From Acidimicrobiia bacterium (GTDB taxonomy: Bacteria; Actinomycetota; Acidimicrobiia; Acidimicrobiales; JANYDT01), in the NCBI GenBank assembly GCA_031429095.1, contig JANOYY010000047.1, positions 4,571 to 68,570 of the forward strand: a stretch of DNA of 64,000 nucleotides, given 5' to 3'. The notes below the pieces were generated by a model. It was given only the letters and a program-made list of their open reading frames with translations. It did not search any database and was not told the origin of the DNA. Made by a program: the position numbers and the translations under genes. Below are positions 55,311 to 63,301 of the stretch, piece by piece. Position 1 is the first letter of the stretch; each line of letters opens with the position of its first letter.

Positions 55311-56534
55311 TCACTCAAGAAGACTCGGGTACTCCAGCAATTCTTCAAGGAGGCGTTCTTCATGGACGACTCGTCCAAAGGCTCTGAAAATTTCGCGCAA
55401 AGGAAAGTCCCACGGTGTCGGTCCGGGATCGGCGTCGTCGAGGGGCAGTTCTACGCCGGCGGCGAACGCGTCGGCAACAGCGCACTCGTAGTCCTTGGCG
55501 TCCATCCTCCACGGCCGCAGTCCAATCGCCGCCATTCGCCGACAGATCGACAACCCTGCCGCATCGAAGTCACCGTGATAGCGAACTTCGGCCCCTGACT
55601 CCAGCAGTTGGGTCAGCAGCAGACGAACCGCGACCGACGGATTCCCATTCGTGGAAATGACAGTCAAGGAGGAGCGGCGCTGGGCCGCTGCTTCGACGAC
55701 ACGCGGGTTTTCCGTCACCAGCACGACTGTGCCCGCTTCCACCTTCACTGGATTGGAACGCAACGCCATCTGACTTAGGTGGGCAACGACGCCGAGCGAC
55801 GTTGCCGTCCACGCGATCGGTGCGAGTCCATCACCGGCCACGATGGGAAGATTCCAGGTGAGTGCCGGGGCGGAGACTGAGTCGTTCGGTGCGCCAGCGC
55901 GGTCCCAAACAGTGCGATCGGTGTCGTCGTAGAGTTCAATCGCGTAGTGGTGGCGCAACCCGCGCATCACTGATGCGCTGAGACGCGTTCCGGGGTCGAG
56001 CGCATGGGAATCGCCGAGCACACGTGCCGCGAGGTCCACGCGACTGCGAGGCTGGTCGGCGCAAGAAAGTGCATCCAGACATCGCCGGACGTCCCTCACG
56101 AGGCCAACTGCACCGTCATTGTCGAGCCCGCGTAGGAGACCGGACTGGATCACGTCGTTGATCCAACTTGTGCCCCACAGCTCGGGCCAAACCGAGACCT
56201 CGACGCGTACGGCCTCGCGTGCGTCTGCGCGGACCCTACGCTCGGTGCGCCGATCTTCGTTCGCGAACGACATTGCATGACCGAGGCTGTCGAGCGCCCG
56301 TACCAGATCAGGGCCGGCGCCAACACGCTCGAGAGCGCGTTCCAACTCGACGAGGTCAACGGTTGCCGTCAACGAGCGGCCGAGCAGCGATGTGAGGTGC
56401 TGTCGACCGCCTGTCGAAAGCGGCGGGATGCGCAAACGACCGCGCCGGATCGAGCCGAGGCGCTCCAGACGGTCACGCACAGCGTCCCACAAGGGTGAAA
56501 GGTCCGGACCGGTGAGCGAAGAAGGCGGCGTCAC
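55311..56534 (-). CDS. jetD: Wadjet JetD (TIGR02679-like; DUF3323 + DUF2399 Toprim nuclease)
   Basis: 407 aa. Toprim Glu in VVLVTENPRVVEAAA and DxD in YHGDFDAAGLSI. The GTG start overlaps the jetB stop (GTGA). Confidence 0.85.
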   Translation of the reverse strand: MTPPSSLTGPDLSPLWDAVRDRLERLGSIRRGRLRIPPLSTGGRQHLTSLLGRSLTATVDLVELERALERVGAGPDLVRALDSLGHAMSFANEDRRTERRVRADAREAVRVEVSVWPELWGTSWINDVIQSGLLRGLDNDGAVGLVRDVRRCLDALSCADQPRSRVDLAARVLGDSHALDPGTRLSASVMRGLRHHYAIELYDDTDRTVWDRAGAPNDSVSAPALTWNLPIVAGDGLAPIAWTATSLGVVAHLSQMALRSNPVKVEAGTVVLVTENPRVVEAAAQRRSSLTVISTNGNPSVAVRLLLTQLLESGAEVRYHGDFDAAGLSICRRMAAIGLRPWRMDAKDYECAVADAFAAGVELPLDDADPGPTPWDFPLREIFRAFGRVVHEERLLEELLEYPSLLE

Positions 56535-57652
56535 CAGAGCGACTCCTGTTCGACGGCGACCACCGTCACTTCCGGTGCGAATCGCCGTCCCGCTGCGAGC
56601 AGGTGCAGTCGTGCCTCCTCGACGCGGGCGAGACGATGCGCCGCAAGCAATACAACGACGTCACGAGCAAGGCGGTCCGGTGATGTCGTGAGGTCCTTGG
56701 ACCAATGCGATGCGTGCTCGTGCGCAAGGTCAGCGACGATAGCTTCGACTTCGTGCATCGCCGTCGATGATTCGAGCCGCTCGATCAGGAGCAATGCGCA
56801 GTGGCTGACCGTACCGCTGCTCGGGAATCGGAGATCGCTCAATGCCCCCGTCGGGTCGATCGCCGCGATGCCCTCCGCCCGGGACTCAAGGGACAGGCCG
56901 AACATTTCGTCGAGCATGCGCGCCTCCTCCCCTTGGCGTCGACGCAATTCCGTCCACTCGCTCTCGTCAAGGTCGGCCCGATACACAACGGAGTCCTCGA
57001 CCAGATGACACCGGGCCCACTGTCGAAAGGAATCGCGACGATCGGCCCGCTCCAGCACCGCCGAGGCGTCCGACTCTCCGAGCAGCGCGCCAATCGGAAG
57101 AAGCGCAATGCGGTCGGGTCGGATCCGTAGAACTGCATCGGCTTCCGCATCATCGACGTAGCGATCGACCTGCTCATGCAGTTCCGAGGCGAGGCCCTGG
57201 TCGACCATCCACCGCAAAACGGTGACCAGAGATCGCCGCTCCGACGCATCGGTGCCCAGATGCGAACTCGCTTCCGCTGCCGCCGAGCGGATGTCACCGA
57301 CGAGGTCACGTAGGCTCACCACGAGTGGACCCGCGGCAGTACTGGCCAGGACGAGCGCCAGAAGCTGCAGCTCGCGGCGATGAAGCGGTCGCCCGGTCTT
57401 GGTGCGCAGTGGCCGGTTATCGGGGATGATACCCGCCTTGAACAGACGGGCGGTGTCGGCGTCGAGGTGCAAACGGTAGCCGAGGCGTTGGGTGAACCAT
57501 TGGTCGAGGTCGTGGTGATGGCGACGGATAAGTCGGAAAACGTCGGGATGGTATTCGGCACAGGTCAGTGGGTACATCAGGAGATGTCGCGCGCACTCGC
57601 GCCGTTCGTGGGCGGCCTGCGGGTCGCCCAACTCCGTTTTGTCCTCAGCCAC
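56531..57652 (-). CDS. jetB: Wadjet JetB (TIGR02678/DUF2398-like kleisin partner)
   Basis: ERRECARHLLMYPLTCAEYHPDVFRLIRRHHHDLDQWFTQRLGYRLHLD and the size fit DUF2398. The GTG start at 57652 overlaps the jetA stop by 8 nt. An alternative TTG at 57688 would give 385 aa. Confidence 0.8.
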   Translation of the reverse strand: MAEDKTELGDPQAAHERRECARHLLMYPLTCAEYHPDVFRLIRRHHHDLDQWFTQRLGYRLHLDADTARLFKAGIIPDNRPLRTKTGRPLHRRELQLLALVLASTAAGPLVVSLRDLVGDIRSAAAEASSHLGTDASERRSLVTVLRWMVDQGLASELHEQVDRYVDDAEADAVLRIRPDRIALLPIGALLGESDASAVLERADRRDSFRQWARCHLVEDSVVYRADLDESEWTELRRRQGEEARMLDEMFGLSLESRAEGIAAIDPTGALSDLRFPSSGTVSHCALLLIERLESSTAMHEVEAIVADLAHEHASHWSKDLTTSPDRLARDVVVLLAAHRLARVEEARLHLLAAGRRFAPEVTVVAVEQESLW

Positions 57653-62100: not shown

Positions 62101-63301
62101 CGGCCCCCACTTCCTCAAGATGGGTTTGTAGCGACGTGACAGCGCCTTTGAAGGCGACGTGCATTTCGGACACGCGCCGAGCGAACTCGGCGCGTCGGTG
62201 TCTGCATTCGACCGCGTCGCTCTCGGCAGTCTGCACGGCCTGAGCCAGTGTGGCGACGTGATTGCGGAGATGCATGAGGTCGGCACCGTCACGGTATGCG
62301 GGACGCTCGCGAAGGGCTTGCAGCTCGTTTTCGATCCGGGCGTCGTCGCTCTCGAGCCGCGATACGTCGGCTTCGCTGCCGACCACCGCAGCCGTCGCCG
62401 TTGCTGCGTTTGCAGTCGCCACCTCCCGGTCGCGTCGGGCTGATCGTACGATGCGGTGAAGTTCTTCCGCATGCGACGCGCGAGAACGCAATTCAGAGCG
62501 CGCATAGCTTTCATAAACGTTGCAGAGACCCGCCAAAGCTTCAGTGGTCCGTCGTAACGACGCGACGTTGTCCCGATGCTCGTCGAGATCTTCAAGGGGC
62601 TGGGCCGCGTCGGCGAGGGCGGCCTCCGACAACTGGGGGAGCGCACTCTCGAGGTACGACGGGAGGTCCACGTCGATACGGTCGCCCACTCTTGGGCTCC
62701 GCACGATGTGCAACAGCCGTATGTGCTGTTCGAGATCCGCGCCGCCAAAGAGTCGAGAGCGAACTTCGTTGCGGTAGTCGCCTCGTCGGTCATGGGCGAA
62801 CACAGCAGACGTTCCGAGGACGGTTCGCAACGAGTCCACGGTGAGCGGGGTTCGTCGGTCCAACAGCGAGAAGTCGAACCCGGGTCTACGGTCCGTTAAG
62901 AACCACCACGTGGTGACCCGGTCCGTCGACGCGTTTGCCCGAATGCCGCAGCCACATACGATGTGGTTGATCTCGCCGGTCACCATGTCGACCCGCTCGA
63001 ACTCGATCCAGAGATACCCCACCGGGTTTGGCTCGTCGCGTCCCGAAAGCATCCAGGAGCGCAGCACGCCTGTTTGTTCGCCGGCAGCATCGATGCGACG
63101 CACGTCGGCCTCAAGCAGGAACGGCAGGAGCATGTTCATGGCCGTCGACTTGCCGGAGCCGTTCACGCCTCGCAGCAGCAGCCGACCTCCGGCGAGCTCG
63201 ATCGTTTCGTCGCCGTATTGATAGACGTTGAGGATGCCCGCCCGATTGAGGTGCCACCGACCCAGCATCGAGATGGATGCTACCGCGGTGAACCCGCCCA
63301 A
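59144..63301 (-). CDS. jetC: Wadjet JetC (TIGR02680-like SMC/ABC-type ATPase)
   Basis: Walker A LLLRGVNGSGKSTAMNMLLPFLLEAD, a long coiled-coil middle, signature LSEGEKKV and Walker B RFLLLDDAFAKVSEDNHG. It is about 1385 aa if it starts at TTG 63301 (GAGGAG SD 6 nt upstream). ATG 63268 is an alternative; the longest ORF starts at 63463. Confidence 0.9.
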   Translation of the reverse strand: MGGFTAVASISMLGRWHLNRAGILNVYQYGDETIELAGGRLLLRGVNGSGKSTAMNMLLPFLLEADVRRIDAAGEQTGVLRSWMLSGRDEPNPVGYLWIEFERVDMVTGEINHIVCGCGIRANASTDRVTTWWFLTDRRPGFDFSLLDRRTPLTVDSLRTVLGTSAVFAHDRRGDYRNEVRSRLFGGADLEQHIRLLHIVRSPRVGDRIDVDLPSYLESALPQLSEAALADAAQPLEDLDEHRDNVASLRRTTEALAGLCNVYESYARSELRSRASHAEELHRIVRSARRDREVATANAATATAAVVGSEADVSRLESDDARIENELQALRERPAYRDGADLMHLRNHVATLAQAVQTAESDAVECRHRRAEFARRVSEMHVAFKGAVTSLQTHLEEVGAVAVLWRIDPPPPLPTVTVSSETELDVGDLPIPSSLTLDLSVLRSALSRSVADAEIRRCDIADVVAQLDAVDRLEADLRAAERRHAQLVSEEASAELDARRAREERRRGEQEWRSATQRWLAALSQPGGDEISLPMAELASAVERPDLLDGLDDIICALIDAVQSIADHHRGLIAKLEALLDQLRLEEDRSRSVCDALAQAVLPDPPAMSWQRSDRRRVLAEAIDFASGVAPEDQLGIEAAMEASGLLSAELLPSGAVALANGELVAVARSSVRASLSRFVSALDGDGNVAAILNTITTERDVDAESFIGVDGEFRVGALRGRHAKTMVEHIGVANRRAALVRRREEAAEALAKAEASVREMESALVLRQRQLDLATAHRNALPSIQPLTTAVAACDAAARVADRAQVASAEAGRAVAQADAAHAETLALGHRIAANHQLPFVRLQLREGGDAMSALIADCRAAEPQASTVESTLRSWTTSIDSWRSTLADHLDRIGRVQVRTAEHSEQRARLVTLEDTVATAWAEIVEVIDATERERKRTREQLQLARTRSKQAVTEQSRTEEVARTSAGAMAEREQRCAALLPGLLATLAVGGLVASATTTGVVAESNAEGARQLRPPPRWPNVTESADGVRDLATAILRAIAAPERSDVGAENVRLSLRQRRENLGAGWDAEDHQADPALPLAVVVTGPLGRMPLADASAEVDTQLRVQSSLLTAKQDHALRNLLQGVIATEVAAKLFAAGELVKLMNKRLSTVTTAHGIGASLRWQRRDDIDGDLADIIALLAKSPDHRDVEEDSKLAASLSSRIDDARRDEPDATYRDLIARVLDYRTWHEMSILVHRPGASPRQLARHPNLSEGEKKVVSYLPLFAAVAASCDAVAEREPTAPRFLLLDDAFAKVSEDNHGPLFGLLVELDLDFIATSERLWGTHASVPELSICEVIRDAEMSTIVLEHARWNGRSLERGFPDSSDRTPLNPGTNQTLLP

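Follow-up and report, generated by a model that had tools for sequence, protein, structure and literature searches.

A type II Wadjet operon with permuted gene order and a variant ATPase site in an Acidimicrobiia genome

The DNA considered here is a stretch of 64,000 nucleotides (nt) from an Acidimicrobiia bacterium (GenBank assembly GCA_031429095.1, contig JANOYY010000047.1, positions 4,571 to 68,570 of the forward strand), referred to below as the window, and it carries an operon which an earlier note, made from the letters alone, had described as a complete type II Wadjet (JetABCD) anti-plasmid defense system. Listing and translation of the open reading frames (ORFs) gave four minus-strand ORFs without internal stops between positions 55311 and 63463. 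The first gene of the operon, jetC (59144–63301, TTG start), encodes an SMC/MukB-like ATPase of 1385 amino acids (aa). It is followed by jetA (57645–59147, ATG start), encoding a DUF2397 kleisin of 500 aa, by jetB (56531–57652, GTG start), encoding a DUF2398 tandem-KITE protein of 373 aa, and by jetD (55311–56534, GTG start), encoding a 407-aa nuclease that combines a CAP-like and a Toprim domain (DUF3323 and DUF2399).

The four genes are adjacent, co-oriented and coupled by overlaps of 4, 8 and 4 nt. In the sequence itself, the ATG of jetA shares ATGA (59144–59147) with the stop of jetC, the GTG of jetB shares GTGGCTGA (57645–57652) with the stop of jetA, and the GTG of jetD shares GTGA (56531–56534) with the stop of jetB. 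A GGAG motif is located 6 nt 5' of the jetC TTG (63301), and the length of 1385 aa that follows from this start is also the one called for a 98.8%-identical protein in other assemblies; the four protein sizes are therefore as the earlier note had stated, and its gene coordinates and three junctions were likewise recovered.

Each of the four proteins was assigned to the type II family expected of it. JetC scored 645.5 bits against TIGR02680 (NCBIfam cut-off 462.85), matched the PADLOC model JetC2 (PDLC00553) with an expect value (E) of 3.5e-267 over residues 66–1421 of the 1439-aa maximal ORF, scored 62.7 bits against the Pfam family PF13558 (SbcC_Walker_B), and found the JetC of Neobacillus vireti (PDB 9qe0_A) by sequence search with E = 4.2e-57. 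JetA scored 321.6 bits against PF09660 and 189.6 against TIGR02677 (cut-off 165.85), and matched both JetA2 (E = 1.3e-133) and PDB 9qe0_E (sequence search, E = 6.9e-14). For JetB, the scores were 232.6 bits with PF09661 and 131.3 with TIGR02678 (cut-off 124.65), together with a JetB2 match at E = 4.6e-88, and for JetD, they were 99.0 bits with PF11796, 116.9 with PF09664 and 198.7 with TIGR02679, the last over its cut-off of 196 by a narrow margin, with JetD2 at E = 3.6e-93. The PADLOC models of types I and III gave only weak matches to the four proteins (type I, E = 1e-7 or worse). JetC reached 26.8 bits with SMC_prok_B (cut-off 567.35), and no RecN or SbcC family was found among the NCBIfam matches to the operon proteins. 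The four TIGR families claimed in the earlier note are thus all present over curated cut-offs, the PADLOC run proposed there returned JetA2, JetB2, JetC2 and JetD2, and the profile searches saw neither a failure of the JetA, JetB or JetD models nor an ATPase of RecN or SbcC type. Its list of Pfam families held for PF09660, PF09661, PF13558, PF11796 and PF09664 but not for PF13555, which stayed at 18.4 bits, below the cut-off of 27. Its overall prediction, that the type II Wadjet is complete and probably functional, is supported by every hidden Markov model (HMM) test that it put forward. With the curated cut-offs passed and the same block recurring in dozens of genomes, the four-gene match is far beyond chance.

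Since sequence searches of the PDB with JetB and with JetD gave no match, we predicted both structures with AlphaFold2 (AF2) from alignments of 45–46 orthologues and searched them by fold. The JetB model (predicted local distance difference test, pLDDT, 89) superposes over its full length on the tandem-KITE JetB of N. vireti, 9qe0_D (E = 3.4e-14, template-modeling (TM) score 0.75, 396 columns), with an identity of 14% over the fold alignment, and single-KITE proteins, namely type I JetB, MukE and Nse3, cover half of it. The JetD model (pLDDT 93.9) has the Pseudomonas aeruginosa JetD 7til_A as its best PDB fold match, followed by Spo11 and Topo VI-A. The Toprim residues of JetD (55563–55712, minus strand) are Glu275, within TENPRV, and Asp322-x-Asp324, within HGDFDAAG. 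Both motifs had been called intact and are present in the translation, and E275, N276, P277, H320, D322, F323, D324 and G327, that is, the acidic Glu and the DxD among others, are invariant in the 45 aligned sequences.

The ATPase site of JetC departs from the usual form. Its Walker A motif, GVNGSGKST (63143–63169, minus strand; residues 45–53 with Lys51), is of a type, G[VI]NGSGKS, found in 115 of 120 JetC homologues. The signature motif LSEGE (59522–59536, minus strand; residues 1256–1260) has Glu in place of the first Gly of LSGGE, the Walker B motif has Asp1294-Asp1295 (59417–59422, minus strand) with Asp in place of the catalytic Glu, and the D-loop position, seven residues past Asp1294, is Ser1301. 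The longer strings quoted in the earlier note, LSEGEKKV and FLLLDDAF, start at JetC residues 1256 and 1290 of the translation. Its statement that the ATPase motifs are intact holds insofar as all of them are present, Walker A is canonical and the consensus of the clade is matched, but Walker B reads DD and not DE, and the signature LSEGE and not LSGGE. Aligned with the N. vireti JetC, LLDDAF stands against LDEAF (in LDEAFAGVD), LSEGE against FSGGE, and the D-loop Ser against Asp.

These three states are nearly invariant among the relatives of this JetC, but across type II as a whole they are in the minority. Walker B DD was observed in 73/73 related loci and in 118/120 protein clusters, the LSEGE signature in 71/73 loci and 120/120 clusters, and the D-loop Ser in all 72 loci with the gene order C-A-B-D. 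In a sample of Actinomycetota genomes drawn evenly, 18 of the 21 type II JetC that could be scored have DE, combined with SGGE, SSGE or SAGE, and the remaining three have DD, all with the order ...B-C-D. The RecF protein of the same genome (C110:5562–6557) also has a Walker B of the form ILLLDDVF, with the signature ASQGEQ, and DD can therefore be regarded as a naturally occurring state in SMC-like ATPases. The idea that the signature Glu necessarily compensates for the missing Glu of Walker B was rejected, DD being found with SQGE, SAGE and SEGE. In the papers searched, we found nothing on variants of Walker B in type II Wadjet or TIGR02680 and no paper pairing "Wadjet" with "TIGR02680", which is weak evidence of novelty; the C-A-B-D order together with the DD/LSEGE/Ser site is real and clade-wide, and apparently undescribed.

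The order of the genes is the second distinctive feature, jetC-jetA-jetB-jetD being unlike the canonical jetA-jetB-jetC-jetD. The canonical order is a descriptive feature that HMM-based definitions do not demand, and the Walker B Glu likewise appears in no family definition. Among the best 80 genome loci, 67 of the 68 complete operons are C-A-B-D, the exception being Streptomyces boncukensis at ~30% identity. The A-B-C-D order occurs on Ralstonia and Streptomyces replicons and in two distant relatives of the same taxonomic order (L014 and L015), one of them of the same family, and all DE-type type II operons examined are A-B-C-D or partial B-C-D. In the JetC tree, the C-A-B-D operons group together in a single clade (support 100/100), whose sister is an A-B-C-D group also carrying DD (support 100/99); operons of A-B-C-D order in which Walker B has the usual Asp-Glu fall outside both DD groups. 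The sub-lineage that includes this operon is monophyletic and has three derived traits: the C-A-B-D order, Walker B DD with the D-loop Ser, and LSEGE. The order is most simply explained by one permutation, and since the three DD-type JetC of the even Actinomycetota sample retain the ...B-C-D order, the change from DE to DD probably came before the signature changes, and these before the permutation. More than 500 relatives were found in species-representative genomes, mostly of Acidimicrobiia, with transfers into Pseudomonadota, Myxococcota and Spirochaetota, and in the JetC tree, sequences from metagenome-assembled genomes (MAGs) of these three phyla are nested inside the Acidimicrobiia group.

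Some loci in this set differ in particulars. One type II JetC (L129; G161:C117) has LSEGEK and LLDDAF yet the ...B-C-D order; it could be a link from the Streptomyces-type DD lineage to the C-A-B-D clade. Three Actinomycetospora species (L086, L087 and L089) have the order C-A-B; two of them show no JetD match in the 7 kb past jetB, and the third has a JetD displaced downstream by 2.9 kb. In this genus, JetD may have been lost or replaced, or a gene inserted. The same-order relative L015 (G030:C121:3460–7881), of A-B-C-D order, has one in-frame TAG in jetC within the TIGR02680 match, with two stop symbols in the translation when the terminal one is counted, the mark of either a pseudogene or a sequencing error.

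The operon is maintained by selection and is patchily distributed. Compared with three orthologous operons, pairwise ratios of nonsynonymous to synonymous divergence (dN/dS) are 0.07–0.17 for all four genes and ~0.16 for jetD, with synonymous divergence (dS) of ~0.9–1.8 and hence near saturation. Four strain-level assemblies with 99.2% nucleotide identity have the same gene lengths, the same overlaps and the same site next to phaC. The source genome (5.0 Mb, 190 contigs, 97% complete) has Acidimicrobiia MAGs as its nearest named relatives and encodes a canonical Smc elsewhere (contig C148, 842 bits), which makes the operon an extra SMC system. Matches to TIGR02680 occur in 9 of the 41 close relatives and in 30 of the 401 Actinomycetota genomes of the even sample, and the proteins of the operon are 76–86% identical to those of a genome of another genus, against 46–58% and 65–77% for two genomes of the same genus. 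Together with the nested sequences from foreign phyla, this patchy spread and mismatch with taxonomy form the pattern expected of a defense cassette that moves horizontally. A search of PLSDB gave no close plasmid relative, all matches being below 60% identity and at most ~38% among the matches listed; these were distant type II operons of A-B-C-D order on Streptomyces and Ralstonia replicons.

The closest system of known structure is nvJET-II of N. vireti (PDB 9QE0/9QE1; bioRxiv 10.1101/2025.03.10.642339), which comprises the same four families with similar sizes (1385 aa here and 1371 aa there for JetC, 500 and 500 for JetA, 373 and 388 for JetB). Sequence identity between the two is low (14% for JetB over the fold alignment), and beyond LDD instead of LDE and the other ATPase differences given above, the operon described here has the C-A-B-D order and a host among the Actinomycetota and not the Bacillota. 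nvJET-II cuts circles of DNA but not linear molecules in a reaction that needs ATP, JetABC and JetD, requires Mn2+, and is built from a JetA1B1C2 motor unit that dimerizes (bioRxiv 10.1101/2025.03.10.642339). Its ATPase rate is ~100 ATP per complex per minute. Among type II systems, it is the only one for which such cleavage and plasmid restriction have been shown. The Streptomyces-type type II operons (Streptomyces sp. NBC_01724 plasmid NZ_CP109170 and S. boncukensis), annotated with TIGR02677–80, are the sister group in the JetC tree and share Walker B DD (LLDDAFAKV), but differ in their A-B-C-D order, their signature LSQGE and their retained D-loop Asp, with a JetC identity of ~30–37%. Type I Wadjet, or MksBEFG (E. 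coli GF4-3, P. aeruginosa PA14 and Corynebacterium glutamicum), follows the same SMC-kleisin-KITE-Toprim logic, provides in 7til_A the best fold for JetD, matches, like MukE, half of JetB (8dk1_E, 8as8_C and 3rpu), and differs by its DUF3375, DUF4194 and DUF3584 families and by a single-KITE homodimer. The MksBEF and MukBEF condensins have no nuclease, whereas jetD is present here, coupled to jetB and under purifying selection. RecF of the same genome resembles the DD-type JetC in its LLLDD Walker B and its SQGE signature, but with 370 aa and without a long coiled coil or a kleisin, KITE or nuclease partner, it belongs to an unrelated system, and JetC is not among the TIGR00611 (RecF) matches in this genome. 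The EptABCD system of Mycolicibacterium smegmatis is equated with JetABCD in reviews that do not state its type (including PMC10586767).

From these comparisons, we consider it very likely that this locus encodes a working Wadjet of type II (JetABCD-II), chromosomal and acquired horizontally as a four-gene cassette. The operon is correctly identified and intact, and it is ordinary as a system. For its mechanism, type I of E. coli and type II of N. vireti serve as models: an SMC motor unit would be made up of the kleisin JetA, a single tandem-KITE JetB and a pair of JetC, two such units would dimerize, and the motors would load on DNA and extrude loops with ATP. On a small circular DNA, extrusion would run to completion and the stalled complex would license the cut by the JetD Toprim domain, leading to destruction of the plasmid, while large or linear DNA would be spared. 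The complex would thus most likely use loop extrusion to measure the size of DNA and JetD to cut small circles; plasmid restriction, a Mn2+ requirement and ATP turnover by JetC despite its Asp-Asp are all properties that we infer for it.

Several observations weigh against this reading. JetC is devoid of the Walker B Glu that is seen in the solved N. vireti JetC, and in ABC ATPases a Glu-to-Gln change at this position drastically slows hydrolysis (PMC10586767), so that processive loop extrusion may be slower or differently driven in this clade. The fold matches of JetD have low TM scores, 0.32–0.37, probably owing to two flexibly linked domains in the model, and a scan for promoters and terminators gave nothing above shuffled expectation, with no sigma-70-like match in the region between jetC and phaC.

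The substitutions in Walker B, the D-loop and the signature motif raise the question of whether the same parts make up a different motor, with a slow or ATP-locked JetC and a complex that acts more as an ATP-gated clamp or sensor, or depends on Mn2+ or DNA for catalysis, than as a fast processive extruder. We regard this as unlikely. In its favor, DD, LSEGE and the D-loop Ser are near-invariant across the clade, having been fixed under selection and not by drift; most type II JetC of the even Actinomycetota sample keep DE; and a natural Walker B Glu-to-Gln change is known from Lamassu LmuB, which is thought to be a slow hydrolyzer (PMC10586767). Asp, on the other hand, retains a carboxylate that could still serve as general base, and the signature Glu is not an obligatory partner of DD. 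RecF, which has DD as well in this very genome, works as an ATPase, if a weak one. We also give a low probability to the view that the C-A-B-D clade is a mechanistically distinct Wadjet subtype, its ATPase cycle re-tuned to slow, long-lived head engagement or to another catalytic arrangement; if true, the clade would sense or size DNA with kinetics unlike those of any Wadjet studied.

Two further explanations concern what the operon does at present and fit the data less well than a functional Wadjet. Domestication for chromosome organization, in the manner of MksBEF and with the defense role lost, would agree with the position beside phaC that the four strain-level assemblies have in common and with the strong purifying selection on all genes. 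It is nevertheless very improbable given a JetD that has been kept, its catalytic residues invariant and its dN/dS ~0.16, a canonical Smc elsewhere in the genome and a patchy distribution at odds with taxonomy. That the operon is an inactive relic, a reading to which a weak SoFic tail in the adjoining DNA might lend some color, is hardly credible in view of 2665 codons without an internal stop, intact coupled overlaps, dN/dS values of 0.07–0.17 and gene lengths kept in the strain variants.

Upstream of the operon, jetC and phaC diverge from an intergenic stretch (63302–63672) that presumably holds the operon's promoter. The phaC-type polyhydroxyalkanoate synthase ORF starts at 63673 and the contig ends within it; PhaC_N and Abhydrolase_1 were identified for it in sister strains. 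A small plus-strand ORF (63421–63566) lies between the two genes and ends in a hydrophobic helix (…MAILALVIALIVFAVRLI); it has no Pfam match, and a 47-aa gene was called at its site in two of the four sister-strain assemblies (L104 and L106). The GC content of the operon, 0.637, differs only slightly from that of the rest of the window, 0.611.

The surrounding DNA had been proposed in the earlier note as a defense or accessory neighborhood, of which the second part holds to some extent. On the ten flanking ORFs, PADLOC gave no defense-family match above threshold, and Pfam assigned to the flanks DUF808, a polysaccharide deacetylase, a glyoxalase, a DUF11/SdrD-type surface protein (795 aa), a metallopeptidase fragment, a helix-turn-helix protein and PhaC; a 267-aa Thr-rich protein is also encoded among the ORFs downstream of jetD. 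The only trace was a sub-threshold match to SoFic (E = 0.0015, the C-terminal 57 model positions) at 54986–55160 on the plus strand, in the ORF 54725–55387, in which Pfam confirmed no Fic remnant. With nothing but this tail from PADLOC and with non-defense Pfam families, we rejected the idea of a defense island. The accessory character is borne out in part by a strain-variable segment of 4.6 kb adjoining jetD. Two independent strain assemblies (L104 and L105) are collinear with the window from phaC as far as position 55259, 52 nt beyond the jetD stop, and then join 55259 directly to 50675 via 12 unrelated bases, the segment 50676–55258 being absent from them. It contains most of the 795-aa DUF11/SdrD gene, a hairpin (53008–53039), the metallopeptidase fragment and the SoFic-like tail, and marks an indel hotspot bordering the Wadjet cassette.

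The phaC side is strain-variable as well. One sister strain (L103, 5162–6274) carries a PemK-type toxin and a FitA-like ribbon-helix-helix/PIN pair a few kb beyond phaC, and other strains have an alpha/beta-hydrolase gene there. No tRNA genes were found in the window, and no meaningful direct or inverted repeats flank the operon. The flanks showed no similarity to six related loci, PhaC is absent from four relatives, and around the DUF808 gene only that gene is shared with G002 and G016; this lack of synteny is weak evidence, because rearrangement among these genomes is too extensive for empty sites to be compared.

As a defense call, the locus adds little, since existing HMM tools would label it type II Wadjet. 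The gain is comparative: a large monophyletic branch of type II, maintained by selection, in which the SMC gene has come to stand first in the operon and the Walker B Glu, the residue mutated in every SMC study to kill hydrolysis, is naturally Asp, with the D-loop and the signature co-varying. Members of this branch would be scored wrongly by rules that expect A-B-C-D or a Walker B with DE. We see the clade-wide order and ATPase site as being of modest, specialist interest. Wadjet is among the best in vitro models of SMC loop extrusion, and for this reason a variant with a re-tuned ATPase would be useful: if natural and functional, it would offer a cheap probe of how the rate of hydrolysis relates to the sizing of DNA and to the licensing of its cleavage.

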